A stretch of DNA of 64,000 bases, taken from the NCBI GenBank assembly GCA_018823135.1, contig JAHJJF010000097.1, positions 1,767 to 65,766 on the forward strand, given 5' to 3'. The notes under the pieces are model-generated. The model did no database searches. It saw only the letters and a program-made list of their open reading frames with translations, and was not told where the DNA came from. This DNA comes from Pseudomonadota bacterium (GTDB lineage: Bacteria > Desulfobacterota > Desulfobulbia > Desulfobulbales > CALZHT01). Both the position numbers and the translations under genes were made by a program. This document shows positions 32,174 through 64,000 of this stretch, piece after piece (the first letter of the stretch is position 1; each line of letters opens with the position of its first letter).

Positions 32174-32235
32174 ACAGTTCAAACCAGGATAAATCGTTTT
32201 ATACATGGATTAAATTGAGCCACAGGAAAGAAATC

Positions 32236-49384: not shown

Positions 49385-49998
49385 CAGAATCCCTCCCTTC
49401 TGTTTTGGCTGGTAATGACTCTTACAGCAATTTCCTGAAGTTTGGCGCTGATACCGAGATTTGCATTGTTGAGTTGTACCCGGTTTATTTCCCAGCGGAT
49501 CTTGTTGTCATCCGTGGAGATGAAATTAATCATGCCGCCGGCTTCAAGAAAACCCTCTTCATCGGAAACGGTGAGAACCGGAGCATTTTTGAGACTGCGA
49601 ATTATTGCCCTGAAATTTGCTTTTTCAGAACTGCTGATAAAAAGAAGTTTGCAGCAGACCAGATCGATATCTTGATCAAAAGTATCAAAATATCGAATTT
49701 CAACCTCCTTGTTGGTTGATTTTCTTATGTGCTCCCTGACCTTATCAAGTGATTGGTTGATAGGGGATTTGCCGATAACATTGATTGCAATCAGTTCTTG
49801 GTTTTCACTTGTCGGCCATTGAATGAAATGAAAAAAATTATAGAGATACGCCGCTTTGAGTTCATACTCACCTGCGCGTGACGCGGAGTTTTCAGCGTAT
49901 ACCGTCATCGGGAAGACATCCAGAAGAGAAACAATAAGAAGGGCAAGGAGCAGATGTTTCAGCGCTGTCTTATATGTTGAATGGAAAGTAATAAACAA
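49384..49998 (-). CDS. YfiR-like (DUF4154) periplasmic protein
   Basis: A signal peptide is followed by the DUF4154 hallmark YELKAAYLYNFFHFIQWP. The position between a TonB-dependent receptor and a sensor kinase is typical for this family. Confidence 0.7.
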   Translation of the reverse strand: MFITFHSTYKTALKHLLLALLIVSLLDVFPMTVYAENSASRAGEYELKAAYLYNFFHFIQWPTSENQELIAINVIGKSPINQSLDKVREHIRKSTNKEVEIRYFDTFDQDIDLVCCKLLFISSSEKANFRAIIRSLKNAPVLTVSDEEGFLEAGGMINFISTDDNKIRWEINRVQLNNANLGISAKLQEIAVRVITSQNRREGF

Positions 49999-50167
49999 AA
50001 ATATACCATCTTTGAATAGAACTTTTAACGGTTCGTATTAGTATTGATTGTGGTGAACAACTTTATTTAACAGCCAGATTCTTTTTTTATCAATTTATCT
50101 TTTAATCGTGCCTCAACTCCCATTAACAGGGTTGCCTGCTAAACAACCTGCCTTGTGTTTTCGTTAC

Positions 50168-52291
50168 TTAAAAATGCGCGGCAATCTCTGCCCAGAAACT
50201 TCTGCCTTCCATGGGATAATCATTGGGTACATACGCTCCTTCTGGCACTGCAGGGGCATAGGGGCTGGGGATACGACCGATCTCATCAAAAAGGTTGCGT
50301 ACCGCTAGGGCCATGTCCCAATGCCTGGAGATATTCTTACGCCTTAAAGTCAGGTTGACAAGTTCATAATCTTCGATATCAGACCGTGGATCACCTGCAG
50401 CACGGTGGCGGTCAGCGATCCAGTAAAATTGGCTATCCAGGGACCAGTCTTTCATAAAAGCCCAGTGAGGGTTCAGATAGAATTGCTGGCCCGGCGCATC
50501 CGGCACCAGACTGTCGGTATCTATATATCTCGAACGCTGTCGGGCATAGTTGGCACGCAGCAAGAGGCTGTCCATAATCTCCCAGTCCATCTCAAATTCT
50601 AAGCCCTGCCCATTCTGTTCGCCGTAGTTGGTATACGGCTGCGGCAATGCCCCTGTGAGCTGGATAATATTCTTGGCCTCGTAGGCATAGACACTGGTTA
50701 CAAGGCGCAGGTTTCTGAGGGGCTGGTAGTCCACGGCCAGCTCCAGGGTCTCGATCTCCTCCGGGTCCAGGTCCGGATTACCTGTGACCTGGAGATTATT
50801 TTTGACCCATTGCTCTCCAAAGGCAGGAGCGCGGAAGGCCTGGCCATACATAAGTTTGGTGATCAGATCGTAACGGGTCTCCCAGACCAGGGCAGCCCTG
50901 GGATTGGTAGTTGAACCGAAATCACTGTACTCGTCATAACGGACACCGGCCGTAAGTTCCCAGCCCTTGGCAAAACACCATTCATCCTGGATTACGCCAA
51001 AAAAAAGCCTGCGGTTGGCGTCATTCATGTAAATATGGTCCGGATCCGTGACATGAACCAGGTCTCCGAACTGGTCAGCCCCGGCGGCCGGGCCAAAGTT
51101 TTTATACTGGTCCGGTTCATAATCATAATTCTTCCATCCCGCCACCAGTCGCAATTGGTGGTCGCGGAAGCCTGTGTAGAGGCTGCTCAGTTCGACGCCA
51201 CCATCCTGGCTTTCACTGATCGGATTGCCCTGCATATTAAGAAAGGCCGGCGGCAATTGCTGTAAAAAAGTATCAGCGTGAAAATAGGAATAATAGAGCC
51301 GGCCATAAAGCTGCCAGTCTTGGAGTACCTTATTTTCATAGTTGAGGTCAGCCAGCAGGCTGGTTCTATCAATCTCATTGCCATCAGTGAGGGCCTGCAG
51401 ACTTCCAAGGCCCGCGGCCGTTTCCTGCAGGTTGGAGTAGAGGTTGAGGTTCCAGTTGTCCTTGCGTAGATTGAGATGAGTATCCAGTAATTCGTAAGAG
51501 GTGTCAATGGGGCCAGGTGCATCGGATTTAGTCGGATCGGCCGGAGGCAGGCCAGGGGCTGAGGTATGAACAAAATCTTTGTCAATGATCCGGTCCTTAT
51601 CGCCTGAAGTTTTTTGCCACTCAAGGCCTAAGGCCAGTTTCCAGCCGCCATAGTTTGCGCCATGCTGGAGCCATACATCGCTGGTATCAAAGGAGCCGTA
51701 ACGGGCGCCTGATTTGGTGCCCGCCAACTCCTGACCGTTCTTGATAATGACATTGATCACCCCGGAAAAAGCGTCGGCGCCATGCAGTGCCGAGCCAGGC
51801 CCCCGGATCACTTCCACCCGGGAGATCATGGCCACCGGCATTTTAAAGGCGGAACCCCGGCCGCCCGTATAGTTGCTGGTAAAAGGCACGGAATTAATCA
51901 GCAGCAGGACATGAGGGTTGGAGACTGCATGAATGCCGCGAATAGACCAGATCGACCCCAAAAAAGCGGTGCCTGAAGGCTCCACATGGAGGCCCGGCAC
52001 CGCCTCCAAGACTTGATCGAGTGTGGTAGCCCCCATTTTTTCAATCTGCTCGGAGGTAATGACCGTGGTCACCGATGGTGCAAGTTTGAGAGGTTTTGAG
52101 TTGCCGGTGGCAAGGGTGACTTCAAGTTCAATAAGCTGCTCGATATCCATGGAAAGAAGCTGTTCCATGTTCAGTTGTTGCTCATCTGCAATGGCGGGAC
52201 TGTGAAGGGAAATAATGAGAGTTAATAAGGCAAACGACAGGCGAATAACGTTATACAAATGCATATATTTTTTTACAGAGAAATATCGCAT
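50168..52291 (-). CDS. TonB-dependent outer-membrane receptor
   Basis: It has a signal peptide, a plug region (APSVTTVITSEQIEKMGATTLDQVLEAVPGL and RGPGSALHGADAFSGVINVI), a long beta-barrel and a C-terminal aromatic residue (…AAHF). Confidence 0.88.
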   Translation of the reverse strand: MRYFSVKKYMHLYNVIRLSFALLTLIISLHSPAIADEQQLNMEQLLSMDIEQLIELEVTLATGNSKPLKLAPSVTTVITSEQIEKMGATTLDQVLEAVPGLHVEPSGTAFLGSIWSIRGIHAVSNPHVLLLINSVPFTSNYTGGRGSAFKMPVAMISRVEVIRGPGSALHGADAFSGVINVIIKNGQELAGTKSGARYGSFDTSDVWLQHGANYGGWKLALGLEWQKTSGDKDRIIDKDFVHTSAPGLPPADPTKSDAPGPIDTSYELLDTHLNLRKDNWNLNLYSNLQETAAGLGSLQALTDGNEIDRTSLLADLNYENKVLQDWQLYGRLYYSYFHADTFLQQLPPAFLNMQGNPISESQDGGVELSSLYTGFRDHQLRLVAGWKNYDYEPDQYKNFGPAAGADQFGDLVHVTDPDHIYMNDANRRLFFGVIQDEWCFAKGWELTAGVRYDEYSDFGSTTNPRAALVWETRYDLITKLMYGQAFRAPAFGEQWVKNNLQVTGNPDLDPEEIETLELAVDYQPLRNLRLVTSVYAYEAKNIIQLTGALPQPYTNYGEQNGQGLEFEMDWEIMDSLLLRANYARQRSRYIDTDSLVPDAPGQQFYLNPHWAFMKDWSLDSQFYWIADRHRAAGDPRSDIEDYELVNLTLRRKNISRHWDMALAVRNLFDEIGRIPSPYAPAVPEGAYVPNDYPMEGRSFWAEIAAHF

Positions 52292-52324
52292 AGAACACCA
52301 TCACGAGAATGAAGTAACTTTTTG

Positions 52325-52341
52325 AATTATTACAAATAATT
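52325..52341. promoter_or_regulatory. AT-rich 7-3-7 palindrome in the divergent intergenic region (candidate operator)
   Basis: AATTATT-ACA-AATAATT is a perfect inverted repeat. It lies 34 nt upstream of the minus-strand receptor start and 224 nt upstream of the ferredoxin gene. It resembles Fur-type AT-rich boxes only loosely. Confidence 0.25.
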
Positions 52342-52564
52342 AAACAATAATTTTATACATGTCAATATATCAATTCCTTTGCCTGTAATTATGTGATCAA
52401 ATCAATACGATTCTGCAAATATCAATGGCCAGAGCCGGCTTTTGGGAGGCGCAGCAAAATAATATTTTTTGTTAATCGGAATTGAAACTCAAGAAAAGTG
52501 TTGTATAGTTGACTAGTTTTATTAACAGAATTTTTAATAGCCAACCATCGCGGTTTATTCTTAA

Positions 52565-53323
52565 ATGCAATACGCAATGCTCATAGATTTGAACAGATGT
52601 ATCGGCTGTCATTCCTGTGCCGTGGCCTGCCGGGCAATCTGGCAGGTGCCGGTGCCGCACCAGAGAAGCTGGGTCCATCGACTCGGGCCTGCTGAAACTC
52701 CGTTCGGCCTTGCTTCAACCTATTATCCGGGGCATTGCAACCAATGTGACAAACCTGCCTGTATCCCGGTCTGTCCGGTCACGCCTGTCCCCAAAGAATT
52801 TCGCCATCAGGGGACCGGACTGGCAAAGACAATCCAGGTTTCCGCTACTTGGAAAAACCCATTCAACGGGATTGTCGAGATTGATAAATCAAGATGCATC
52901 GGTTGCGGAGCCTGTGTTAAGGGATGCCCGTATAATGCACGTTTTGTGAATGATGCGAAAAAACCACTCAAAGCTGATAAATGCGATTTCTGCCAGGGGC
53001 GACTGGATCAGGGACTTGAACCATTTTGTGTTGAAACCTGTATCGGCAGCGCCAGGATTTTCGGCGATATCACAGACCCGCAATCAGCAATATCTCAGTA
53101 CATAAAGGATGGCGCCATAAAGCTCGAATCCCCGGATGTCCGAATTGGCCCCAATGTGTTGTATTCCGGAAATAAACGAGACATCTATCTGCTCACCGAA
53201 ACCAGCACTCCAAGCCTGTTGCCCCAAGTCTCCCAACGCCGGATCATTTTAGGGGAACTGGTGAAACCATCATCACAACGATTGAACAAAGCTGTTTCGT
53301 CTGAAAACCGCAAATTATCCTGA
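52565..53323 (+). CDS. Four-cluster [4Fe-4S] ferredoxin of the DmsB/PsrB/NrfC/NapG type
   Basis: The N-terminus is MQYAMLIDLNRCIGCHSCAVAC. Further Cys groups are CNQCDKPACIPVCP, CIGCGACVKGCP and CDFC...FCVETC. There is no Tat signal and no adjacent molybdopterin or membrane subunit. Confidence 0.85.
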   Translation: MQYAMLIDLNRCIGCHSCAVACRAIWQVPVPHQRSWVHRLGPAETPFGLASTYYPGHCNQCDKPACIPVCPVTPVPKEFRHQGTGLAKTIQVSATWKNPFNGIVEIDKSRCIGCGACVKGCPYNARFVNDAKKPLKADKCDFCQGRLDQGLEPFCVETCIGSARIFGDITDPQSAISQYIKDGAIKLESPDVRIGPNVLYSGNKRDIYLLTETSTPSLLPQVSQRRIILGELVKPSSQRLNKAVSSENRKLS

Positions 53324-53588
53324 TTTGTTTTCCTTCTTGATAATCAAATCTGACAGTTCATCCCCCTGCCTAAAGAATAGAATCTTTTTAAGATCAAAGA
53401 AACATTCTTCGTTTTTTTGATTAGCCCTCCTTTATTTTTTCTCCAGCCGCACCACAAAGTTGATGCGACAATTTGCCACATTTTCAGCCTTATTAAGAAA
53501 TGTTATCTTCCCGTCCAACTACCACATCGTGGCAGTCTGCTGTTTGCTTCAATAAATAACGTAATTTCAGGAAGAAGGGGAGGGGGTT

Positions 53589-55721
53589 TTGAAAAAGAGC
53601 ATATTACTCGCAACTGCAGTTGTTCTTGCCATGCAATCAAATGCCGGTGCTGAAGAAGTGAAAAAAGAACTTGACGAGGTAAGTGTCACCGCAACCAGAA
53701 TCGAAAGAAAGACTGCCGAAGTCCCGGCGTCAATTGCAGTGATTTCCGAAGAGCAGATTAACGATACCAAGATGTTCAATGTTAAGGAAGCCCTCACCGG
53801 CACTCCTGGAGTGTTAATCGAGACGACCAATCAGGGATATGACTCGCGACTGATTATTCGCGGCGCTGGTCTTAAAGCTGCTTATGGAGTTCGCGAGATC
53901 ATGGTGCTCCGCGATGGAGTTCCGGTGACCGACCCGGATGGCATGACCCGCCTTGATATGGTCGACACGCAGAACATCGAGCGCATCGAAGTGGTTAAGG
54001 GGCCGAACTCAACATTGTGGGGCGCCAATGCATCCGGAGGAGTCATAAACATCATCACAAAAAATCCGCTGGAAAGAAAAGGCGGCACCATAAAACTCGG
54101 AGCAGGAGATTTCGATACTTATAATCTGCATGCTTCCTATACCGATGACATATCGGAAAAACTCTATTACAGCGCCAGTCTTTCCAGGCGAGAGACCAGT
54201 AACTCATGGCGACGCTGGAATGAATTCGAAACCACCCAGTTGAGCGTCCAACCGTATGTGGTTCTGGATGACGGGTCAACCTGGGAGAATAATATCAGCT
54301 ACTCCAAGGCTGATCTGCAGTTGTCCGGATCCCTTGACGAAGCCATGTTCCAAGAATACCTGCAAACCGGAGAAGCTAATCAAACAACAGGACAGTGGCA
54401 GTATTCGGGGCGCTATTCCGATTCGTATTTTGTAAGTTCGAAAGTCACCAAGGAATTGGGAGATTTGGAATTTATCCCTCTCGTCTATGTCAATTACTGG
54501 GAACACCATCACCCGGTAACCGGCAGGATCAACGATGCCGAAACCTGGACCATGGGAACTGATTTCCAGTTCAATTACAAGCATAAGGTTGCTAGCGAAG
54601 CAGCCACAATGACTGTTGGTATTACGGTCAGATTTGATGACCAGAAAACCGAGTACTATAAATATGCTGACATTGCATTAGGGGTAGATCCTCCGGGTCC
54701 AAGTCCGGCCCCGATAGATCATGTATTGTCTGATGCTGTGGGAGATCATATGGAAACACAGACCCGGGAAGCGCTTCTTTACGGGCTTTATGTACAGGAA
54801 TCCTTTTCCCCCGTTAAAAAAACCGTGGTTGATGTCGGCGCACGAGTTGATGTGATTGATTTCAAAATTATCAGTAATGCGGATTGGGAATACAATTGGG
54901 GAACGAAAAATTATGGTATTCCAAGTGTACCGTATACTGAAACGAATAAGAGCTATACCGCATTCAGCCCGAGAATCGGTGCCAACTACGAGCTGACCGA
55001 GCAATTTCATACTTTCATAAGTGCATCAACCGGGGTCAATACACCCAGTGAGAGCGAAATAAACGACAACCCGAACCTGGAAATGGTGGAAACCCAAAGT
55101 TACGAACTGGGGCTTAAAGGGCGAGGGGGAAATTGGACCTTTGATTCCTCGGTATACTATTCACCAGTAAAAAATGAGGTTGTCAAGGTTGCCCAATCTG
55201 ACCATACCGACTATGTCAATGCCGGAAAAACCCTGAAAAAGGGTTTTGAGTTTGCCGGTTCCTACACTCTTCTTGATAGTCTAAACATAGGTACCAGCTA
55301 TACCTATTCCGACTACACTTTTGAAGAATTTAATGAACCGACTGGTTCTTACGTTTTTCCAATAGGGATGGTCTATCAGGATAATTTCAGAAACGGTAAT
55401 CGATTGCCGTATATACCGGTACATCAATATTCCCTTTTTGCTTCCTACAAGCATCAGACCGGTTTCAAGGCGAAAATTCAATCGCATACCTGGGGTTCCT
55501 ATTACATGGACAATGCCAATACAGAGAAGTACGAAGGGTATGATTTTGTGACCAACCTAATGCTGGGTTACGAAACCTCCAGATACGATTTCAGCGTCAA
55601 TATTGATAACCTTTTTGATGATCAGTATGCCGTTGAGGTAACCAAGGATCTTGCCCTTGTAAAAAGCTACAAGCCTGGTGCACCGAGAACCATCATGGCC
55701 CGTGTGAATCTGAAATTTTAA
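53589..55721 (+). CDS. TonB-dependent outer-membrane receptor
   Basis: A TTG start follows a strong AGGGGAGGGGG Shine-Dalgarno sequence. The signal peptide is LLATAVVLAMQSNAGA. The plug region includes DEVSVTATRIERKTAEVPASIAVISEEQI and VKGPNSTLWGANASGGVINIIT. The C-terminus is NLKF. Confidence 0.9.
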   Translation: MKKSILLATAVVLAMQSNAGAEEVKKELDEVSVTATRIERKTAEVPASIAVISEEQINDTKMFNVKEALTGTPGVLIETTNQGYDSRLIIRGAGLKAAYGVREIMVLRDGVPVTDPDGMTRLDMVDTQNIERIEVVKGPNSTLWGANASGGVINIITKNPLERKGGTIKLGAGDFDTYNLHASYTDDISEKLYYSASLSRRETSNSWRRWNEFETTQLSVQPYVVLDDGSTWENNISYSKADLQLSGSLDEAMFQEYLQTGEANQTTGQWQYSGRYSDSYFVSSKVTKELGDLEFIPLVYVNYWEHHHPVTGRINDAETWTMGTDFQFNYKHKVASEAATMTVGITVRFDDQKTEYYKYADIALGVDPPGPSPAPIDHVLSDAVGDHMETQTREALLYGLYVQESFSPVKKTVVDVGARVDVIDFKIISNADWEYNWGTKNYGIPSVPYTETNKSYTAFSPRIGANYELTEQFHTFISASTGVNTPSESEINDNPNLEMVETQSYELGLKGRGGNWTFDSSVYYSPVKNEVVKVAQSDHTDYVNAGKTLKKGFEFAGSYTLLDSLNIGTSYTYSDYTFEEFNEPTGSYVFPIGMVYQDNFRNGNRLPYIPVHQYSLFASYKHQTGFKAKIQSHTWGSYYMDNANTEKYEGYDFVTNLMLGYETSRYDFSVNIDNLFDDQYAVEVTKDLALVKSYKPGAPRTIMARVNLKF

Positions 55722-55727
55722 AGGAAT

Positions 55728-56762
55728 ATGTATATGAAGGCCTTCATTAAAACACTTACGATTGCCTCATTCTTGCTGATTCTACCTCTGGTCTCAATGG
55801 CATCAATCAGCAAGGATGAACTCTGGTTCTCCGCCATGCCCAAAATGACGCATGAATCAGGGCATGACACGAATCGGCCTGCCGGGAAAAAATCCGGCGG
55901 TCGACCCGGGGGAGCTGATACCGGGCATTCCGCTCATGAGTCGGAGCATCGTCCCAAGCCGGAAAGGACTTACTGGCTCAACTCCTGCGGCATAACAGAA
56001 GATGCAAAGGCGTTTCTGCTCAGGCCGGAAGGAGAGGTTCTCCCGGTGCCGATTAAACGAGAGGAACATGAGGTAAGTGTTAAGGTGAAAACCCCTTTTG
56101 GCGAAGGGCCTGCCCACGGCGCAAATAATGTCTATCTGGCAGATCAGTTTGTTGACGGAAAAACCCTCTATGCAAATTCTGCCAAATGGCTGACCATTCA
56201 TCATAATTGCGGCTGGGGCCATGAGCATAAATTCAACAAGAAGCGTTTGCTCCCGCAGTCTTATTCTATAATCCCTCTGGAGATTGTTGTAGATAATCTC
56301 TGGGACTCAAACTTCCATTCCACCGTCATGTCCGGGGACACCATCTCGCTACAGGTACTATCCTTTGGAAAACCTGCTGCGAAAGCAACTGTGACAATTG
56401 AATCCGATCGGGGCTGGAAAAAACAGATCACCACCGATGAGCAGGGCAGGGCAAGTTTTCAGATGGTCAGGGATTATTATCCTGATGCCTGGAATTTGTT
56501 TAATAGAAGTAAACCGGGAAAATTTAAATTGTCCGCCCTTTATTCCGGAAACATACGGGGTGAATATAATGGCCAATCCTATGAAAATGCAAAAATGACC
56601 TCGACATTTACCTGGCGCTATTACCCGGCAAGGAATGAATACGTCTCCTACACTTATGGACTCATCGCAGCCTTTCTTGCTCTGACGTTCAGCGGATTAG
56701 GTGTCTACATCTATCGCGAGAGACGTAAAAAACCGTATAAAGAGATAACGCTCAAAGAATGA
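55728..56762 (+). CDS. His-rich periplasmic protein with a DUF4198/transthyretin-like beta-sandwich and a C-terminal membrane anchor
   Basis: The gene starts 6 nt after the receptor stop. It has a signal peptide and a His-rich stretch, THESGHDTNRPAGKKSGGRPGGADTGHSAHESEHRPKPE (55848-55964). The beta-sandwich-like segment is GDTISLQVLSFGKPAAKATVTIESDRGWKKQITTDEQGRASFQM. The C-terminal TM helix is YGLIAAFLALTFSGLGVYIY. The family assignment is tentative. Confidence 0.55.
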   Translation: MYMKAFIKTLTIASFLLILPLVSMASISKDELWFSAMPKMTHESGHDTNRPAGKKSGGRPGGADTGHSAHESEHRPKPERTYWLNSCGITEDAKAFLLRPEGEVLPVPIKREEHEVSVKVKTPFGEGPAHGANNVYLADQFVDGKTLYANSAKWLTIHHNCGWGHEHKFNKKRLLPQSYSIIPLEIVVDNLWDSNFHSTVMSGDTISLQVLSFGKPAAKATVTIESDRGWKKQITTDEQGRASFQMVRDYYPDAWNLFNRSKPGKFKLSALYSGNIRGEYNGQSYENAKMTSTFTWRYYPARNEYVSYTYGLIAAFLALTFSGLGVYIYRERRKKPYKEITLKE

Positions 56763-56922
56763 CGGATTACTGAAAAATCCGTCTTACCGATTAAGGAGGG
56801 CTAAGTAAAAATTCGATATACAAGGAGTATTGGTGGCACAAAAGCGGAGGCATATGTTTAAGATGTCGAGCATTTTGGGTACCGGTACGACACAGTAGAT
56901 CGGACTCTTTACAACGCCATCA

Positions 56923-57903
56923 ATGAATAAGTTTCGTAAATGGATCAACAATACAGATATCAACCGGTTCCGTTTCTGGTTCCAGTTGGCAAGTTTTATT
57001 CTGCTCATTTATGGAGGATTGCTGGCAATCAATATCGGCGACCGATTGCCGACCTTTGCCTGTGTGTTTGATAATCTTCGGGGCGGCTCCTGCTATCTCA
57101 TGGGATTTCAGCATCAGACCAATATCCCTTTCAAGCAGATTTTCTCAGGCAGAGGCATAGGCCTGTTTATCGGGCTTGCCACCTTTATCGGTTTTTTTCT
57201 GTTATTCAACAAGGCCTGGTGCGGTTTTGCCTGTCCTTTGGGCGCGTTGCAGGACTGGATCACCATGATCCGCAAAAAAATGAACATCCGCTACAGCGTC
57301 TATTCGAAACCGGAATTTGCCAGGCTGAAAACGATCAAATACTTCCTGCTCGCCCTGCTGATTCTGATTCCGCTGGGCATGAGCAATTCGGTCTTCGGTC
57401 TGCCAAAGCTCAGCCATGATTTTGCCATACCGTTCTGCATGATCTGCCCCGGCCGCACGCTTCTGCCGGTTTTTACCGGTGATTTTTCACAACTGGCCAT
57501 TGATTTCAGCTCAAAAACCAAGCTGGTTTTTACGGCGCTGGGCATGGCGATAACCGGATTATTCTTAAGTGGTTCATTTTTCAAGAAACGCTTTTTCTGT
57601 CTTTTCTGCCCGATGAGCGCCTTTCATTACATTTTCCATAAGGCCGCAGTGCTGCGACTGAGCAAGGATGGCGAAAAATGTACGCAATGCGGCAACTGCT
57701 ACCGGGTCTGCGATGTGGGAATCCGCGATATTGCAGAAGACATTGTAAGCAGAAATATTGTCAAGGATGATTGCATGATGTGCTTTAAATGTGTTGCTGC
57801 CTGTCCCGAGGAAAACTGTCTCAGTGTGAACCTTTATGGGATCCCGGTTTACGATTCCACCGCAGAAGGATTTTTTGAACGGATGTCCAGGAGGAATAAA
57901 TGA
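56923..57903 (+). CDS. NapH/NosR-C-terminal-like polytopic membrane protein with two cytoplasmic [4Fe-4S] motifs
   Basis: It has at least 4 TM helices with CX3CP and CX2CP motifs (WCGFACPLG and FFCLFCPMS). Two ferredoxin motifs lie at the C-terminus (CTQCGNCYRVC and CMMCFKCVAACP). Confidence 0.7.
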   Translation: MNKFRKWINNTDINRFRFWFQLASFILLIYGGLLAINIGDRLPTFACVFDNLRGGSCYLMGFQHQTNIPFKQIFSGRGIGLFIGLATFIGFFLLFNKAWCGFACPLGALQDWITMIRKKMNIRYSVYSKPEFARLKTIKYFLLALLILIPLGMSNSVFGLPKLSHDFAIPFCMICPGRTLLPVFTGDFSQLAIDFSSKTKLVFTALGMAITGLFLSGSFFKKRFFCLFCPMSAFHYIFHKAAVLRLSKDGEKCTQCGNCYRVCDVGIRDIAEDIVSRNIVKDDCMMCFKCVAACPEENCLSVNLYGIPVYDSTAEGFFERMSRRNK

Positions 57904-59171
57904 ACACTGACCGTGCAGAACGAGTGAGAAGATCAACCGCGCTTCATATTTCAATGGAAATCGACAGCGTTCTTCAGAAAATCGAAGGCGAGTTTTATGA
58001 TAATCCCGCGGCCATGATCTATTTTTATGATTTTTTCAGAACGTATCTCTCGGAAAAATTCTTTACTCCGTCAATACCGGTTATCGGCACAATGTGCGTC
58101 CAGGTTCCTGATGAAATCATTTATGCACTTGGCGCCAGACCGCAAAGGATTTGTTGCGGCATTTCCACCTGCGAGCAGGTGGGTGCTGAATTCATGCCGT
58201 CGAAAGCCTGCCCGGTTGTCAAAGCCACCACCGGAAACCTTTCGGCAAATAAGGAGATTCTCTCCAGATACTTCAGCGCAATCGTCATTCCCTCTACCTG
58301 CGATCAGAAGCGGAAAAGCGCCGAAACTCTTTCTGCAATGGGTTACAAGGTGATCATGCTTGAAATGCCCCTCACCAGAAACAGTGATATGGCCGTGCAG
58401 TACTGGCATGAATCAATAAAGAAACTGGTCATTGATCTTCAAAAAGTCACTGGCAAGACATTAACCTCTAAAAATCTTCAAGGGGCCATCGGCAAAGTCG
58501 GTCAGGCACAAAAAGTTTTCCGTGAACTTTATGATTTGAGAAAATCCGACCCGCCGGTAATAACCGGCAAGGATGTTTTGATGGTCAACAACGCCTATTT
58601 TCTTGATGATATAGAGAGCTGGACCGATGCGGTATCCACACTGAATTACGAACTGACAAGATGCAAAAAAAAATCCATGCATGTTGGACTTAAAAATGCT
58701 CCAAGGATTCTGCTCACCGGATCACCGCCGATTTTTCCCAACCTCAAAGTTCCTTTGATGCTGGAACAATCAGGCGCAGTAATCGTTGCCGATGAAGTCT
58801 GTTCTTCAACCAGGCTTCTTTACGACACTGTTGCCTATGATGAACCAAAGCTCTATGACATGGTCCCGGCTATTGCCGATCGCTATCTCAAAGCCAGCAC
58901 CTGTCCATGCTTTACACCCAATGATAATCGCCTTCGGAGACTTCTGGAAATGACCAGGGATTTCAGGGTTGACGGCGTTGTCTATCAGGCTTTCTCCGGA
59001 TGCATGCCCTATGAAATGGAACAGAAGAAGATAAACGACATGCTGGCCGCCCACGGCATTCCCATGCTCTATGTTGAAACGGATTACAGCCCCGAGGACC
59101 AGGGGCAGCTTTCAACCAGGATCGAAGCGTTTATCGAATCAATAAAAGCCAGAAACCGCAAAGCATCCTGA
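57900..59171 (+). CDS. Single-subunit 2-hydroxyacyl-CoA dehydratase family protein (double-cubane-cluster-protein-like)
   Basis: The start overlaps the upstream stop (ATGA). The 423-aa protein has an HGD-D-family N-terminal pattern (IPVIGTMCVQVPDEIIYALGARPQRICCG) and multiple conserved-looking Cys residues (STCEQ, KACPV, STCDQ, EVCSS, STCPC and SGCMPYE). No second (beta) dehydratase subunit gene is nearby. Confidence 0.7.
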   Translation: MNTDRAERVRRSTALHISMEIDSVLQKIEGEFYDNPAAMIYFYDFFRTYLSEKFFTPSIPVIGTMCVQVPDEIIYALGARPQRICCGISTCEQVGAEFMPSKACPVVKATTGNLSANKEILSRYFSAIVIPSTCDQKRKSAETLSAMGYKVIMLEMPLTRNSDMAVQYWHESIKKLVIDLQKVTGKTLTSKNLQGAIGKVGQAQKVFRELYDLRKSDPPVITGKDVLMVNNAYFLDDIESWTDAVSTLNYELTRCKKKSMHVGLKNAPRILLTGSPPIFPNLKVPLMLEQSGAVIVADEVCSSTRLLYDTVAYDEPKLYDMVPAIADRYLKASTCPCFTPNDNRLRRLLEMTRDFRVDGVVYQAFSGCMPYEMEQKKINDMLAAHGIPMLYVETDYSPEDQGQLSTRIEAFIESIKARNRKAS

Positions 59172-59228
59172 TAATGACCTGCTCTGCGACAAGGAATGCA
59201 AGGTCTCCGAGCTGCCTGGGATTAGAAG

Positions 59229-59326
59229 TCCGAATCCAGGAGCCAGAAGTCCGAAGAAAGAAGAGGTAAGTACATATTGGATTTCAGGTCGTTCTGGATA
59301 CAGACTCCTGGCTCCTGGATTCCGGG
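59229..59326 (+). promoter_or_regulatory. Long-stem intercistronic hairpin between the dehydratase-like and activase genes
   Basis: GAATCCAGGAGCCAG (59232-59246) is perfectly complementary to CTGGCTCCTGGATTC (59308-59322). The stem extends through AAGTC/GACTC with one mismatch, and the loop is about 50 nt. A direct repeat of AGAAGTCCGAA lies at 59224 and 59246. The hairpin sits in a 216-nt gap within an otherwise overlapping operon. Confidence 0.5.
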
Positions 59327-59387
59327 CCAAGACGCATCAAGCTGTTGAGTATTGGCCCCCAACAAAGGATAATAAGGTGAATTAACC

Positions 59388-60203
59388 ATGAAATATTTTG
59401 CTGGAATTGATATAGGATCAACCTCGATAAAAATTGTCATAATCGACAAATCCGGAACCGTAATCGCCCATAAAACCGCTGCTACCGGCAGCCTCTTTAA
59501 CAAGAATACCCTGAAGGCCTTTAATGATCTCCTTGTTGATAAGAAGATCGCCAGATATGAGATTGGCTATGTTGTATCAACCGGTTACGGCAGAAAATTA
59601 TTCAAGGACTCCGATGAATCAATCAGTGAGATTACCGCAAATGCAATGGGCGCGAGAAAAATTGCCGAGGCAACCGGTGTTCGGACAATAATCAATATCG
59701 GCGGCCAGGATCTCAAGGTCATTCACCTTGACGAGGCAGGCCATATCATCAATTTTGCGATGAATGACAAATGTGCTGCCGGCACCGGACGTTTCCTTGA
59801 AATGACCGCCCGGAATCTTGAGATAGAGGTCGATGAATTGGGCGATTATCACCTGAACAATTCCGGCATTCCCATTACGATCAACAGCACCTGTACGGTT
59901 TTTGCCGAATCAGAGATCATCGGTCTTATGGCCAATGGCCGTTCCAAAGAAGAAATTGTTGCAGGTATTCATTACTCAATCGCCCGAAGAGTAGCACGCC
60001 TGGCAAGAAGATTCGGAGTGCAGGAAACGGTGTTTTTTGATGGCGGACCTGCCCTGAATCAAGGACTGATTCAAGCGTTGGAAGATGAACTGATGTGCAG
60101 TGTCATTGTTCCTGAAATGCCACAGATCACCACGGCGTTGGGGGCAGCACTCATTGCCAGAAATGCATTTATTGATGAAAAGGAAAACGTCAATGCTGCA
60201 TGA
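59388..60203 (+). CDS. BcrAD/BadFG/HgdC-type ATP-dependent activase (archerase) with a bridging [4Fe-4S] site
   Basis: The ASKHA N-terminus is YFAGIDIGSTSIKIVII, and GGQDLKVI is present. The two cluster-ligand Cys contexts are NDKCAAGTGRFLE and NSTCTVFAESE. The length is 271 aa. Confidence 0.85.
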   Translation: MKYFAGIDIGSTSIKIVIIDKSGTVIAHKTAATGSLFNKNTLKAFNDLLVDKKIARYEIGYVVSTGYGRKLFKDSDESISEITANAMGARKIAEATGVRTIINIGGQDLKVIHLDEAGHIINFAMNDKCAAGTGRFLEMTARNLEIEVDELGDYHLNNSGIPITINSTCTVFAESEIIGLMANGRSKEEIVAGIHYSIARRVARLARRFGVQETVFFDGGPALNQGLIQALEDELMCSVIVPEMPQITTALGAALIARNAFIDEKENVNAA

Positions 60204-60807
60204 AACTCTGTCTATTTTTGTTCTGGGTACGATCAGCGGAATAACTGTTTGCAGTTTTTCCTGTCTACCTTTTCTAGGTCCTTTTTTATTGAGCACTGGG
60301 CAAGGGTTTAAAGACGGAGTATCATCGACGGCACTTTTTATTATCGGCAAGATTGCGGCGTACACTGTTTTAGGGTGTCTGGCAGGTTTACTGGGGCAGG
60401 TCCTGGCTTTTGAATCATCTGGTGCAATGCGTTTTATTCTTGGTGTGCCGCTTATCATAACCGGTTTGTCACTGCCGTTTATACATAAAGCAGGATGTGG
60501 AAAGTGTCACGGCAGATCAATATCATTCTTCGGACTGGGCCTGATTACAAGTCTGGTACCTTGCCCCGCGCTTACCGCGGTATTTGCTCTGGCGGCGAAA
60601 GACGGCAGCATTCTTAATGGCGCCCTGTATGGATTGTCATTCGGTTCAGGGTTGATCATCTCGCCACTACTTATAATCGGCGGCGGGTTGTCAGTGATTT
60701 CTTCAAAAATTAAACTGGAAGCAGCCAGAATCATGCCGGCAATACAAGTCATCAGCTGTATAATAATGGTTCTTCTGGGTACAAGAATACTATTTACGGA
60801 GGCATAG
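60193..60807 (+). CDS. DsbD_2/CcdA-like polytopic membrane protein (thiol-disulfide electron conduit or LysE-superfamily metal transporter)
   Basis: The likely start is MLHETLS at 60193, overlapping the activase stop by 11 nt. The ORF-track start at 60100 lies inside the activase gene. The protein has about 6 TM helices with Cys-Pro motifs in TM1 (VCSFSCLPF) and a later helix (LVPCPAL). Confidence 0.6.
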
Positions 60808-60808
60808 G

Positions 60809-61234
60809 ATGGAGTGGCTTAAATACACCATAGATTACGGCATCATTGGTCTTCTGGTGATCATGAGTTTTGTGGCCGTGGCAATAGCTGTGGAAAGATT
60901 TCTTGCCTATAAAAAGATACAGATAAGTGATTTTGCCGACAAACGAGAACTGGAGCTGTTTCTCACCGGGCGCTTGCATCTTATTGCAACCATCGGCAGC
61001 AATGCCCCCTATATCGGGCTGCTTGGTACGGTGCTGGGCATCATGCTGACCTTTTACACCATGGGCAAAACCGGTTTCATGGATACCGGAAAAATCATGG
61101 TGGGCCTTGCCCTTGCCTTGAAGGTCACCGCCGCAGGGCTCATTGTCGCGATTCCGGCCATTGTTCTCTACAATCTTCTGCAAAGAAAGGTTCGCGTTTT
61201 ACTCCTGCAATGGGACATCGCAAATGGAAGATAA
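60809..61234 (+). CDS. exbB: MotA/TolQ/ExbB-family proton channel (short ExbB)
   Basis: The gene starts 1 nt after the upstream stop. Its motifs are [17 protein letters not shown] and [24 protein letters not shown]. Confidence 0.8.
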
Positions 61235-61601
61235 AGGCTTTGATACGATAAATGTCATCCCGCTGGTTGACGTGATGCTGGTACTCTTGACCATAGTGCT
61301 CACCACATCGACTTTTATTGCGGTGGGAGCAATCCCTGTCCAGTTGCCGCAGGCATCTGCCGCAGCGGAACAGCAATTAAAGAGCACGACGATCTCCATT
61401 GATAAGAGCGGCAGTATTTTTCTGGATAATCAACTGGAATCAAAGGCCAGCCTTCGCAAAAACATGATTTGCAAGTCCAGAGAAATTCCTGTGGTGATAA
61501 GGGCTGACAAGGATATCGCCCTGCAATTATTCGTCGATGTAATGGATATTGTCAAGGATCTGGGCTTTCAGAAAGTAAGCCTGCAAACGGAAAAGACATG
61601 A
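61224..61601 (+). CDS. exbD: ExbD/TolR-family protein
   Basis: The likely start is [22 protein letters not shown] at 61224, overlapping exbB by 11 nt. It has a single TM helix plus a periplasmic domain ([26 protein letters not shown]). Confidence 0.8.
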
Positions 61602-62401
61602 CACGAAATCACTTATCCGCATACGGCTTTTCATTTATCTTTCATGCCGTATTTATTGCCTTGATATTCACTCTTGGCAATCTCTTGCCATTGGAGCAAA
61701 CCCCGCTGGTCATTGATTTCAGCATCCTCAGCGGCAATGAATCCGTGCCGGTCATTAATCCAGCTGCCAAGCCTGAACAACCGAAAGTTGTGAAACAGAT
61801 CCAGCCTGCGACACCAAAACAAAAGAAGATTGTCAAAAAGCCGCCGAAGATTGAAGAAAAGAAGATTGTGGCGGTGAACAAACCTGAGCCCCTTCCCATA
61901 GCTCCGGTCATTGAAGAAAAACCAATGGAAAAAGAAATCGTTGCTGAAGTTGAACCAATTAAACCTGAAATTGCCGAACAAACAGAAATGGAAGAAATAA
62001 TTCCATTGCCGGATGCGGAATTTGCTGAAAACCAGACACCTTCTGACGTGCCTCCAATGGAAGCGGTCAACAATTTCAACGATGCGGCGTTAAATGAAAA
62101 AGCTTCCTACGGATACTCAAAACAACAGTATCTGAAAGCCCATTTTGACTACATCAAGAATGACATCCAGAAAAAGGTTGTCTACCCGCGCATGGCAAGA
62201 AAAATGGGCTGGCAGGGCAGGGTGCTTCTATCTTTTGTTGTTTGTGAAGACGGGTCGATCAAAGATGTAAAAATCATCGAAAGTTCTGGTTATTCCCTGC
62301 TTGATGCAAATGCCGTGAAAACCGTTCAATCCGCTGCACCATTCCCGGTTCCGCCGATCCGTGCTGAAATCATCATCCCCATCTCTTATGCCCTTGTCTG
62401 A
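61598..62401 (+). CDS. tonB: TonB energy transducer
   Basis: The start overlaps exbD (ATGA). It has an N-terminal TM helix and a Pro/Lys/Glu-rich spacer (PEQPKVVKQIQPATPKQKKIVKKPPKIEEKK...). The TonB_C domain is YPRMARKMGWQGRVLLSFVV.EDGSIKDVKIIESSGYSLLDANAVKTV. Confidence 0.85.
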   Translation: MTRNHLSAYGFSFIFHAVFIALIFTLGNLLPLEQTPLVIDFSILSGNESVPVINPAAKPEQPKVVKQIQPATPKQKKIVKKPPKIEEKKIVAVNKPEPLPIAPVIEEKPMEKEIVAEVEPIKPEIAEQTEMEEIIPLPDAEFAENQTPSDVPPMEAVNNFNDAALNEKASYGYSKQQYLKAHFDYIKNDIQKKVVYPRMARKMGWQGRVLLSFVVCEDGSIKDVKIIESSGYSLLDANAVKTVQSAAPFPVPPIRAEIIIPISYALV

Positions 62402-62654
62402 ATTTTCCAAATCTGGTTGAAAACCTATCGTTCATATGCAATCTGCCATTTCTTGAGCAGCACGCGAACCCTTGTTTTGGGGGGATCCATCTAATATTTC
62501 AAGCTTCCAGAATAAATGAAATGTTGCGTCAAGAAGAGTCAAGCAAAGACCAGACCTCCTGAGTTATGCCGCCATTCTGTCCTTTTTGTTTCTTTGCACA
62601 CCTGGGTTAATATGGTATACGTATAATAATCAAACAAACCATATTAAAGGATGA

Positions 62655-63602
62655 GTGATGAACTATATTTCCTCTGAAATCCTGAACCGACTGGATGAAA
62701 AACTGTCCAGGTTGAATTCCTTCCGGCCCTTGCCGCAAACTGCTGTCCGTAAGCTGCAGGAACAATTCGAACTGGAAATGACCTACAATTCAAATGCCAT
62801 TGAGGGCAACAGTCTGACTCTCAAGGAAACCTTTCTGGTCATTAACCAAGGCCTGACGATCAAAGGAAAACCTCTCAAGGATCACTTGGAGGCCAAGGGG
62901 CACACAGAAGCACTTGAATACCTCTATGATTTGACAGCCCAAGACCCCCCGGCCCCATTAACCGAAAGAATAATCAGGGAACTTAACGGGATTGTCATGC
63001 GCAACATTGATCAGGAATGGGCCGGCAGATACCGTAACAGTAATGTTATCATCGGCGGCGCCACATACACACCGCCGGAAGCCTTTGAAGTTCCCCGATT
63101 GATGGAGGAATTGCTCAGTTGGGCAAACAGCGCCGGGCAAAACCTGCACCCGGTTGAATTGGCCGCTGTTTTTCATCATCGTCTCGTGTACATTCATCCT
63201 TTTTACGACGGCAATGGCCGCACCACCCGGTTGACAATGAATGTCATCCTGCTCAAGGCGGGATTTCCATTGGTGGTGATCCTGAAAAACGATCGACGAA
63301 GATATTACCGTTTACTGGGTGAGGCCGACCGTGGCAACTTGAGACCCTTCGCCGGTTTTATCGCCCAGACGGCCCAAAGGACACTGGATATCTATCTGAA
63401 GGTGCTGACTCCGGACCGGAAATCCAAAGAGAAATTCATTGCCCTGGTCGATCTGGCGAAGCACTCCAGGTTCTCGGCTAAATACCTCAATCTCCTGGCC
63501 CGTGCCGGCAAGCTTGAAGCTCACAAGGAAGGCCGCAACTGGCTTTCATCAAAAGAGGCGCTCAGGAGGTACCTGGATGGGAGGGAAAGAAAAAGGAAAT
63601 AA
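62655..63602 (+). CDS. Fic family protein (AMPylase-type) with an N-terminal inhibitory-helix motif and a C-terminal HTH-like tail
   Basis: The Fic motif HPFYDGNGRTTR lies at 63195-63230. The [S/T]xxxE[G/N] motif is SNAIEGN. The C-terminal DNA-binding-like segment is LVDLAKHSRFSAKYLNLLARAGKLEAHKEGRNW. The ATG at 62658 may be the true start. Confidence 0.85.
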   Translation: MMNYISSEILNRLDEKLSRLNSFRPLPQTAVRKLQEQFELEMTYNSNAIEGNSLTLKETFLVINQGLTIKGKPLKDHLEAKGHTEALEYLYDLTAQDPPAPLTERIIRELNGIVMRNIDQEWAGRYRNSNVIIGGATYTPPEAFEVPRLMEELLSWANSAGQNLHPVELAAVFHHRLVYIHPFYDGNGRTTRLTMNVILLKAGFPLVVILKNDRRRYYRLLGEADRGNLRPFAGFIAQTAQRTLDIYLKVLTPDRKSKEKFIALVDLAKHSRFSAKYLNLLARAGKLEAHKEGRNWLSSKEALRRYLDGRERKRK

Positions 63603-63635
63603 TCCAACAATGCATTCTGCCTCTATGCCTTCCTG

Positions 63636-63817
63636 AAAAAAGTTGTCTGCCCGCTCATGGCAAGAAGAATGGGCTGGCAGGGCAGGTGCTGGTTTCTTTT
63701 GTTGTTTGTGAAGACGGTTCGATCATTGATATAAAAATACTTGAAAGCTCCGGATATTCCCTGCTTGATACAAATGCCATAAAAATTGTTCAAAAGGTTT
63801 CCAAAATAAATCTTTAG
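63636..63817 (+). pseudogene. Frameshifted fragment duplicating the tonB C-terminal domain
   Basis: The nucleotide sequence is clearly homologous to 62168-62330 of the intact tonB, for example AATGGGCTGGCAGGGCAGG...CTTTTGTTGTTTGTGAAGACGG.TCGATCA and TATTCCCTGCTTGAT.CAAATGCC. It lacks the N-terminal two thirds of the gene. A 1-nt deletion near 63686 breaks the frame. Confidence 0.75.
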
Positions 63818-64000
63818 TTGTGTTGAAATAAGATTCGTTACGTATAGTTGGCATAAATTTAAACCTGAAAAGTAGTATTTTTTAACTAAATTACAGGGGT
63901 TAGCGAAACAGAATAACTAGAACAGGTCAATAATGCCTGAGAACCCCTTTAATATCCGATAGCAGGGTAAAAGTGCCTGCCAATCATATGGTTGCTCCAC

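Follow-up and report, generated by a model that had tools for sequence, protein, structure and literature searches.

A 64,000-nucleotide stretch of contig JAHJJF010000097.1 (positions 1,767 to 65,766 of the forward strand; GenBank assembly GCA_018823135.1, a Pseudomonadota bacterium placed by GTDB in the Desulfobulbales), hereafter the window, very probably encodes a double-cubane-cluster protein (DCCP)-type reductase at 57900-59171 together with its ATP-dependent activase at 59388-60203, and the pair lies within a conserved cassette of nine genes for TonB-dependent uptake. DCCPs, discovered in 2018, possess a cofactor akin to the P-cluster of nitrogenase and can, in vitro, reduce acetylene, hydrazine and azide, while reviews and later papers still give their physiological function as unknown (PMC7317905). 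The initial annotation had read the two genes as a DCCP-type pair whose role might be revealed by an uptake-operon context. That context is real, with a TonB-dependent receptor gene upstream and the genes for ExbB, ExbD and TonB downstream on one strand, and its bearing on the role of the pair is strongly borne out by the conservation of the cassette. In the best reading, which we hold with moderate confidence, the DCCP would be the ATP-driven low-potential redox module of a TonB-dependent system for the reductive acquisition of a metal or metal chelate. The nine genes share one strand, their ends overlapping or nearly abutting, and follow this order:

53589 to 55721, plus strand: TonB-dependent outer-membrane receptor, 710 residues (Pfam Plug, expectation value (E) 6e-26; TonB_dep_Rec_b-barrel, E 3e-38)
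55728 to 56762, plus strand: divergent DUF4198-type, putatively metal-binding periplasmic protein, 344 residues (sub-threshold Pfam match; fold predicted with AlphaFold2 (AF2))
56923 to 57903, plus strand: NapH-like integral membrane Fe-S protein, 326 residues (Fer4_5, E 7e-14; Fer4_10, E 1e-10)
57900 to 59171, plus strand: DCCP-type reductase subunit, 423 residues (HGD-D, NF040772, seven-cysteine motif, predicted model)
59388 to 60203, plus strand: HgdC/HadI/DCCP-R-type ATP-dependent electron-transfer ATPase ("activase"), 271 residues (BcrAD_BadFG, TIGR00241)
60193 to 60807, plus strand: DsbD_2/CcdA-like membrane protein with six transmembrane helices, about 205 residues (Pfam DsbD_2, E 2.5e-18)
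60809 to 61234, plus strand: ExbB, 141 residues (MotA_ExbB, E 1.4e-27; TIGR02805 exbB2, 158.9 bits against a cut-off of 135.35)
61224 to 61601, plus strand: ExbD, about 125 residues from the ATG at 61224 (the mechanical open reading frame begins at 61143), called orthologues having 126 (Pfam ExbD, E 7e-25)
61598 to 62401, plus strand: TonB, 267 residues, the last cassette gene (TonB_C, E 2.6e-20; TIGR01352, 68.1 bits against a cut-off of 27.1)

The 423-residue protein is matched over its full length by the Pfam family HGD-D (E 1.6e-93). The motif CX19CX18-19CX29CX166-170CX32-34CX32C, which was published by Jeoung and Dobbek for "cluster IV" of the FldB/C family and comprises six cluster ligands and one nearby cysteine, was used as the criterion for a DCCP (PMC7317905). 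The initial annotation had counted at least seven candidate ligand cysteines; the protein contains 11 in total, and seven of these (C66, C85, C104, C134, C301, C335 and C368) fit the motif with the spacing C66-x18-C85-x18-C104-x29-C134-x166-C301-x33-C335-x32-C368. The first interval of 18 residues is one below the 19 of the printed motif, and the PDB chain alignment revealed the same interval in the DCCP of C. hydrogenoformans (DCCP_Ch). None of the seven cysteines varies across an alignment of 53 orthologues, a conservation far beyond chance. In a HMMER alignment to the structure of BzdN, six of them coincide with the [8Fe-9S] ligands Cys36, Cys73, Cys100, Cys263, Cys293 and Cys327, and the predicted [8Fe-9S] ligands in the window protein are C66, C104, C134, C301, C335 and C368, while C85, the seventh cysteine of the motif, is the counterpart of the non-ligand Cys94 of DCCP_Ch. 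Since the six ligand positions align with those of BzdN and the seven-cysteine motif is matched, the pattern is that of a DCCP and not the three-cysteine HgdA/HgdB type for which the initial annotation had left room.

By far the best family match of the protein is the NCBIfam equivalog model for double-cubane proteins, NF040772 (348.0 bits, E 6e-104), whose curated cut-off of 350 bits is missed by 2 bits. Orthologues from other cassettes score 350.3-365.1 bits and E. coli YjiM scores 531, placing the DCCP clade of the cassette at the edge of this model. The GenBank name of the window protein lacks a double-cubane label because of this marginal miss, whereas the Prokaryotic Genome Annotation Pipeline names the Desulfurivibrio and Desulforhopalus orthologues "double-cubane-cluster-containing anaerobic reductase". 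Conversely, the models for BzdN, BcrC and HadC score only 92-111 bits against cut-offs of 421-700 (for example, 111.2 bits against 453.8 for the BzdN model TIGR03190 and 101.6 against 700 for the HadC model NF052456), and TIGR03192 gives 158 bits against 380.2. The closest PDB entries by sequence are those of DCCP (7YYL and 6ENO, E 7e-65), followed by BzdN (6e-28) and HadC (1e-18). An AF2 model derived from the alignment of orthologues (pLDDT 90.3, pTM 0.90) superposes over its full length on 6ENO and 7YZM with template-modeling (TM) scores of 0.90-0.91, compared with 0.77 for BzdN and 0.75 for HadC. The protein is thus predicted, from its sequence, to be an HGD-D enzyme of the homodimer type with an [8Fe-9S] cluster on six cysteines, and the DCCP-type reading of the initial annotation stands. 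Taken alone, it is a further and slightly under-annotated member of a known family, and the family assignment is not in itself new.

The activase matches Pfam BcrAD_BadFG (E 7.2e-55) and scores 242.6 bits on the acyl-CoA dehydratase activase model TIGR00241, well above the cut-off of 125.4; its PDB matches are HadI (4EHT, E 2.6e-65), HgdC (1HUX, E 1.2e-52) and DCCP-R (7YYL chain E, E 1.1e-47). Its Cys129 (NDKCAAGTG) and Cys169 (NSTCTVF) align with the cluster cysteines of HadI (4EHT) and HgdC, in agreement with the bridging-cluster cysteines proposed initially. The activase is accordingly predicted to be the dedicated ATP-hydrolyzing [4Fe-4S] reductase of the DCCP, bridging its cluster through Cys129 and Cys169, and the two proteins are predicted to form a nitrogenase-like two-component system in which electrons are driven to very low potential.

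The lengths and coordinates of the single HGD-D gene and its neighboring activase gene were given exactly in the initial annotation, and tblastn detected no second copy of either in the 64-kb window, the next-best match having an E of 0.5. A Pfam search of all window open reading frames of at least 150 residues found multiheme cytochromes, giant surface proteins, housekeeping proteins, sensor kinases and TonB-system proteins, but no coenzyme A (CoA)-transferase, acyl-CoA ligase or second HGD-D gene, in agreement with the initial annotation; neither of the former two is present in the flanks of five annotated related loci, and no second HGD-D subunit is encoded in any of the 54 related loci. 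The window also lacks a BzdO-like gene and contains only one ATPase gene of this kind. The lack of a BzdO-like partner matters here because the example of BzdN shows that a set of six cysteines is no proof of a homodimeric DCCP.

The pair can be placed among characterized systems. The DCCP/DCCP-R pair of C. hydrogenoformans (CHY_0487/CHY_0488; 6ENO, 7YYL and 7YZM) shares with it the fold, the seven-cysteine motif, the long form of ~420 residues that includes N-terminal helices and an adjacent single HgdC-type ATPase with both cluster cysteines. The two DCCPs differ in that they belong to separate clades, with a BLASTP identity of 37% over residues 61-416, and in that the cassette context is found only here, none having been reported for the C. 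hydrogenoformans pair, whose physiological substrate is given as unknown (PMC7317905). E. coli YjiM/YjiL, a "class II" DCCP pair, likewise consists of an HGD-D protein with seven cysteines followed by an activase, but YjiM is only 31% identical to the window protein, comprises 383 residues without the N-terminal extension and has yjiN, mdtM and yjiK for neighbors, not TonB-system genes. In the class I benzoyl-CoA reductase BzdNOPQ (8S02), BzdN holds a six-cysteine [8Fe-9S] cluster at homologous positions that is charged by an HgdC-type ATPase and acts as an electron store and relay, setting a precedent for a relay role; BzdN, however, forms a heterodimer with BzdO, is served by two different ATPase subunits and acts on a CoA ester, and none of these partners is encoded here. 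The 2-hydroxyacyl-CoA dehydratases (HgdAB, HadBC and FldBC) are built from two paralogous HGD-D subunits with three-cysteine [4Fe-4S] clusters, in contrast to the one HGD-D gene and six ligand cysteines of the window.

The context of the pair was examined in 54 related loci, denoted by L numbers where they must be told apart. Ten loci were anchored on DCCP orthologues, namely those of Desulfurivibrio alkaliphilus AHT2 (L001; CP001940.1, ~1.008-1.018 Mb), a Desulforhopalus metagenome-assembled genome (MAG), a 434-kb metagenome contig, a 63%-identical relative, a MAG labeled as Nitrospirota and five GTDB genomes, the last five having been obtained from a single-protein search of genome contigs. 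All ten harbor the nine genes in identical order between unrelated flanks, and the same order is found in Candidatus Desulfobia pelagia. A further 44 loci were collected by searching metagenome contigs with an alignment of the 344-residue DUF4198-like protein, an independent anchor. Across the 54 loci the cassette order is retained almost without exception, while the flanks are unrelated. Counting only loci in which the contig extends far enough, this anchor is accompanied by the NapH-like gene in 33 of 34 cases, by the DCCP gene in all 22, by the activase gene in all 15, by the DsbD_2-like gene in 12 of 14, by the ExbB gene in all 11 and by an upstream receptor gene in 22 of 23; with the DCCP as anchor, the NapH-like and activase genes are neighbors in 10/10 loci each and the DUF4198-like gene in 9/9. 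Identity to the window copy is 50-79% for the NapH-like protein, which is the most conserved protein of the cassette, 59-77% for the activase, mostly 63-77% for ExbB, mostly 48-63% for the DCCP and 35-61% for the 344-residue protein, whereas the receptor, the most variable component, ranges over 23-70% in about three classes (~25%, 45% and 70%). The core machinery of the cassette is fixed, and the receptor is exchanged. In a neighbor-joining tree the cassette DCCPs constitute one clade apart from DCCP_Ch and YjiM; it includes four representatives, and two more branch just outside it. We regard it as likely, with good confidence, that the cassette is one functional uptake unit. No description of it was found in the literature searched, the coverage of which is incomplete.

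An orphan 252-residue four-cluster ferredoxin of the TtrB/DsrO/NrfC type, encoded at 52565-53323 on the plus strand between a divergent receptor gene and the candidate operator of the cassette, lacks a signal peptide, and neither a catalytic nor a membrane partner is encoded close by. This ferredoxin was considered as a further cassette member and ruled out, being absent from all other loci and located upstream of the conserved operator.

The proteins encoded around the DCCP pair suggest what such a unit might do. The 344-residue protein consists of a signal peptide, a low-complexity, disordered His/Gly-rich linker, a beta-sandwich body, a C-terminal transmembrane anchor and a conserved basic tail, and an identical protein is named DUF4198 domain-containing protein by NCBI. 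Because the Pfam match is sub-threshold, the fold assignment depends on the predicted model (pLDDT 84.7), whose eight top PDB fold matches are all Zcp or DUF4198 proteins (probability 1.0, TMt 0.53-0.64), among them structures of the gonococcal zinc-capture protein Zcp with bound Zn, Cu or Co and a Ni-bound DUF4198 protein of Ideonella. DUF4198 proteins are periplasmic metal-buffering or metal-binding proteins (PMC12663993), and Zcp coordinates its metal through three histidines. Compared with Zcp (fold match probability 1.0, TMt 0.64), the window protein is only 14% identical, is membrane-anchored and carries different His/Cys motifs. The alignment revealed the invariant motifs ESEHRP (E71, E73, H74 and R75) and HHxCGWGH (H159, C161, W163, G164 and H165) along with the invariant histidines H130 and H197, and we propose, from the predicted model and by analogy, that the protein may bind metal through these His/Cys/Glu motifs. 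It is a rare protein, with only 145 relatives (90% clusters) among 5.8 billion proteins.

The NapH-like protein has four predicted transmembrane helices, CX3CP/CX2CP motifs and a C-terminal 2x[4Fe-4S] ferredoxin domain with two CX2CX2CX3C motifs, the cysteine motifs being invariant in the alignment. Hydrophobicity and the positive-inside rule suggest that the two cysteine pairs lie in outward-facing loops and that the ferredoxin domain is cytoplasmic. Four transmembrane helices, the Fer4_5 CX3CP motif and a cytoplasmic 2x[4Fe-4S] domain are shared with NapH, NosR, PceC and CcoG, of which CcoG is a cupric reductase. The protein nevertheless reaches only 69.2 bits (E 4e-19) on the NapH/MauN model TIGR02163 against a cut-off of 213, and 67.9 bits on NF007013 against 234; it lacks a domain binding flavin mononucleotide, and it has no NapG, NosZ or reductive dehalogenase partner, its conserved neighbor being the DCCP. 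No nap genes were found by Pfam among the window open reading frames of at least 150 residues, and no outgroup was available for the protein, as the 120 matches listed are all cassette members. Its stop codon overlaps the DCCP start codon (ATGA, 57900-57903), and because this conserved, translationally coupled gene lies directly upstream, a non-homologous partner protein of the DCCP is likely. NapH-like proteins are known as modular transmembrane electron carriers (PMC8238504).

The start codon of the DsbD_2-like gene is probably the ATG at 60193 or that at 60175, and with either of them the gene overlaps the activase gene at its end. Among the 11 cassette copies aligned, an invariant CSxxC stands in the first transmembrane helix, an invariant cysteine in a cytoplasmic loop and an invariant PCP in the fourth helix, a combination that is the hallmark of CcdA/DsbD-type thiol conduits. 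The protein has no relative in the PDB or among NCBIfam models, and it may alternatively be a permease for a thiophilic metal.

The receptor scores 206.5 bits on the siderophore-receptor subfamily model TIGR01783, below the cut-off of 223.5, and its closest PDB relatives are YncD/PqqU, FoxA and CntO, with BtuB among the generic relatives. As the best relatives are generic siderophore- or PqqU-like receptors and no specific equivalog is reached, the receptor allows no assignment of the cargo. Split gene calls in L003 and L004 had raised the suspicion of a selenocysteine-containing receptor, which was ruled out, the splits being due to a poly-T run in L003 and a run of N in L004.

The upstream region of the cassette and one of its spacers contain the following elements:

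53463 to 53481, plus strand: 19-bp imperfect palindrome ATGCGACAATTTGCCACAT, candidate operator, conserved across loci
59228 to 59325, plus strand: long hairpin in the DCCP/activase spacer, with an exact 15-nt inverted repeat GAATCCAGGAGCCAG at 59232 and 59308

The 64-kb window holds a single copy of the palindrome, located ~108-126 bp before the start codon of the receptor gene; a conserved TGnTAnnnT resembling an extended -10 element follows ~25 nt downstream. The palindrome is found at the same place in 10 other loci, making 11 in all (L001 at 5825; L004 at 2432 and, on the minus strand, 2289; L006 at 5745; L008 at 3002; L009 at 5849; L012 at 7710; L013 at 678; L014 at 7761; L030 at 4372; and L021 at ~6035), and in the alignment its core TGCGACAATTTGCC varies little or not at all; the second copy in L004 points toward a divergent gene of the NosL family. 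The palindrome is missing from more distant cassettes (L010, L028, L036, L042-L044, L047 and L051). The palindrome looks like the operator of a dedicated regulator, and its conservation argues that the cassette is switched as a unit. We assign it to no particular regulator: the half-site ATGCGAC recalls the predicted Desulfovibrio Zur_D box ATGCAACnnnGTTGCAT (PMC545781), yet the spacing differs and the site lies ~25 nt before the -10-like element, and the likeness of the half-site is only suggestive. General promoter and terminator consensus scans returned counts near chance.

Two spacers within the window cassette are atypical. The DCCP and activase genes, elsewhere ~5 bp apart or overlapping, are separated here by 216 bp (59172-59387) that fold at -73 kcal/mol (z -3.3), and the hairpin within this window-specific spacer probably represents either a small insertion or an RNA structure internal to the operon, such as a processing or stability signal, outside the conserved cassette. 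A weak sigma-70-like match at 59345-59373, just downstream of the hairpin, marks a possible internal promoter before the activase gene. The DUF4198-like gene, which overlaps the NapH-like gene in other loci, is separated from it here by a 160-bp spacer (56763-56922) that folds at -45.1 kcal/mol (z -3.8), beating all 200 shuffles.

How might an ATP-driven reductase serve uptake? In ~1500 PepSY-type clusters, DUF4198 genes are found together with those for membrane iron reductases and TonB receptors (PMC8238504), and such PepSY/DUF4198/TonB-receptor iron-assimilation clusters follow the same logic as the cassette, namely a receptor, a periplasmic DUF4198 protein and a transmembrane electron protein (PMC8238504, PMC12663993). 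They differ in that the cassette encodes a NapH-like Fe-S protein instead of a PepSY-like reductase and lacks the ApbE or DUF2271 flavinylation module, and in that its ATP-driven DCCP has no counterpart there. Because of this analogy, we infer that the cargo is a metal, and that the cassette would acquire a transition metal or metal chelate that needs reduction for its release. In such a scheme the receptor, energized by the cassette's own ExbB-ExbD-TonB, would carry the cargo into the periplasm, where the membrane-anchored DUF4198-type protein would bind the metal through its invariant His/Cys/Glu motifs; the NapH-like protein, and possibly the CcdA-like thiol protein, would link the periplasmic side to the cytoplasm, and there the DCCP and its activase would spend ATP on low-potential electrons for release or conversion of the cargo. 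Two variants can be envisaged: electrons from the double cubane may pass through the NapH-like ferredoxin domain and across the membrane to the periplasmic cargo, for which the BzdN relay is a precedent, or the cargo or its ligand may reach the cytoplasm, where the double cubane would reduce it in the way that it reduces small molecules in vitro. The expense of ATP would make most sense for iron chelates of very low potential, which would also agree with the siderophore-like receptors. The Cys/His/Met-rich accessory proteins would be in keeping with a thiophilic metal (Cu, Ni, Zn or Co, for example).

Our confidence differs between the parts of this proposal. That the cassette performs reductive metal acquisition we consider evenly balanced. 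Its most explicit form, in which the ATP-driven DCCP would inject electrons through a NapH-like and CcdA-like conduit and thereby strip metal from cargo held by the DUF4198-type protein, as a hitherto unrecognized acquisition machine of anaerobes, is tentative and less likely than not, and the choice of any specific metal as cargo is doubtful at best.

Several observations weigh against the proposal of reductive metal acquisition. The receptors, generic siderophore/PqqU-like proteins with 23-70% identity to the window copy, point to no particular cargo. No reduction is required for Zn, Ni or Co(II), nor a low-potential donor for Cu(II), so that an ATP-driven reductase is obviously useful only for chelates of very low potential or for ligand chemistry. 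Unless the DsbD_2-like protein fills that place, the cassette has no canonical permease for metals in the inner membrane. The usual task of NapH-like proteins is to pass electrons from quinol outward to respiratory enzymes, and to our knowledge none is on record as the partner of a DCCP. In DCCP_Ch, small molecules are reduced at the cluster itself, and a pure relay role is known only for BzdN. The DUF4198 match of the 344-residue protein, at 30.3 bits, is under the Pfam gathering score of 34. Upstream of the receptor gene there are no meaningful matches to the Fur (E. coli and Desulfovibrio-type), Zur or NikR consensus, and no riboswitch was detected with Rfam in the window at 49900-64000 (E<=1) or in L001-L003 (gathering score). 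Finally, some of the synteny reflects common descent, as most loci come from one order, and the tree, a distance tree of 50%-identity representatives with DCCP_Ch and YjiM, is without support values.

In an alternative, the pair and cassette are the same, but the cargo is not a nutritional metal ion; it would be an unusual chelator or else a small compound, reducible or organometallic, that is imported to the cytoplasm with the DsbD_2-like protein as permease and reduced at the double cubane, the NapH-like protein merely feeding the activase. Such a function would be in keeping with the reduction of small molecules at the cluster of DCCP_Ch (PMC7317905) and with the membership of the window DCCP in the same long, closed-channel class (full-length TM score 0.9), and it would provide an electron donor for the activase, for which the cassette otherwise has no obvious candidate. 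A further parallel is the SAO locus of Haft and Gwadz, who, using the same NF040772 model, associated other DCCPs with a transporter that takes up a presumed organometallic substrate; theirs is the only earlier proposal that ties DCCPs to uptake and metal-related chemistry. The SAO locus, however, comprises an ABC importer, selenoproteins and a MerB-like lyase and is found mostly in Clostridia and spirochetes, and Pfam and NCBIfam scans of the open reading frames detected none of its genes in the window. The cassette instead has a TonB-dependent receptor and other accessory proteins, and the paper of Haft and Gwadz does not mention TonB. Moreover, the periplasmic component here has a predicted metal-binding fold with His/Cys motifs, the two membrane proteins look like redox conduits and not like permeases, and quinol is too weak a reductant for the activase cluster. 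On balance we regard import of a small molecule for cytoplasmic reduction as rather unlikely.

Two further explanations are less likely still. The DCCP pairs of C. hydrogenoformans and E. coli (yjiML) occur without TonB context, and the window has its atypical 160-bp and 216-bp spacers and a possible internal promoter before the activase gene, all of which would suit a free-standing pair with a general cytoplasmic role in detoxification or small-molecule reduction that lies beside TonB genes by chance. We consider this very improbable, given that 22/22 and 10/10 informative loci retain the order of the genes with differing flanks and DCCP identities down to ~50%, that the NapH-like and DCCP genes overlap, and that the cassette DCCPs branch as a separate clade. 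An atypical 2-hydroxyacyl-CoA dehydratase or a class I benzoyl-CoA-reductase-like enzyme acting on a CoA thioester is the least credible reading and can almost be dismissed: BzdN, too, carries a six-cysteine [8Fe-9S] cluster, but the window encodes no second HGD-D or BzdO-like subunit, second ATPase subunit, CoA-transferase or ligase, the BzdN, BcrC and HadC models score far below their cut-offs, and the cluster cysteines number six and not three.

Variable genes next to the cassette in other loci bear on reductive metal acquisition as well. These are a NosL-family protein with a Met/His-rich C-terminal tail (L004, 1523-2158, minus strand), YHS-domain proteins (L008, 2175-2669, and L030, 3550-4041, both minus strand) and thioredoxin-like proteins of the TlpA/AhpC-TSA type (L012, 6978-7499, minus strand, and L028, 17466-18014, plus strand). 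Such neighbors are typical of thiophilic-metal trafficking or periplasmic thiol redox chemistry, which suggests a metal as the cargo. The Cys/His-rich small secreted proteins and the second receptor of L051, and a recurrent secreted protein encoded upstream of the receptor in more distant cassettes, all described below, suggest the same.

Other differences among the loci were noted. A secreted protein of ~100-130 residues without a Pfam family, marked by the motifs LDVCHSS and, at its C-terminus, AFQK(D/E)YPP, is encoded just upstream of the receptor in more distant cassettes, and may be a tenth component of these; the window has no such gene. Its copies are as follows:

L036, 7397 to 7699: secreted protein of ~100-130 residues
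L044, 7430 to 7738: the same
L047, 2082 to 2390: the same
L042, 4572 to 4976 and 5745 to 6122: two copies
L028, 7123 to 7545: possible copy

In L051, a 4.3-kb insertion (9094-13146) between the DsbD_2-like and ExbB genes encodes a 130-residue Cys/His-rich secreted protein, which is also encoded upstream at 190-582, a second TonB-dependent receptor and a 409-residue beta-propeller-like protein without a family match. The variant cassette of L028/L029 lacks the DsbD_2-like gene and has in its place (13886-15619) a gene for a 577-residue secreted DxDGDG-repeat protein (Lsa25.6-like); its ExbB, ExbD and TonB are much more divergent. In D. alkaliphilus (L001, 14634-16696), NifU-like and cysteine desulfurase (NifS-like) genes directly follow TonB, a single case that may be fortuitous or may hint at a connection with the supply of Fe-S clusters.

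Elsewhere in the window, a second TonB-dependent receptor (707 residues) belongs to an apparent operon divergent from the cassette (47111-52291, minus strand), together with a DUF4154/YfiR-like periplasmic protein and a CHASE8-HAMP-PAS hybrid histidine kinase. A Fic/DOC-family protein with an HTH_17-like C-terminal region is encoded directly after TonB (62655-63602, plus strand) and is not conserved in other loci. The region at 5-18960 (plus strand) encodes a 1424-residue protein with heme motifs of the cytochrome c7/c3 type followed by a 4898-residue DUF2341/Laminin_G_3/fn3/SBBP beta-propeller protein; a 714-residue DUF7948/SBBP protein is encoded at 19180-21324, and multiheme cytochromes at 29408-30886 (minus strand) and 32215-33540 (plus strand).

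If only the conservative part of this analysis holds, the result is a correctly re-annotated DCCP whose curated name was missed by 2 bits. The cassette itself is a second and different link between DCCPs and uptake beside the SAO locus, made through a TonB-dependent receptor in Desulfobulbales-type bacteria. With one well-delimited DCCP clade locked into a nine-gene TonB cassette that occurs in a cultured organism with a complete genome, D. alkaliphilus AHT2, the open question of DCCP function becomes experimentally approachable. Should the proposed role prove true, it would be the first physiological function for a DCCP and the first case of a nitrogenase-like, ATP-coupled reductase serving nutrient uptake and not catabolism or fixation, and it would bear on how anaerobes in sulfidic sediments obtain scarce metals.

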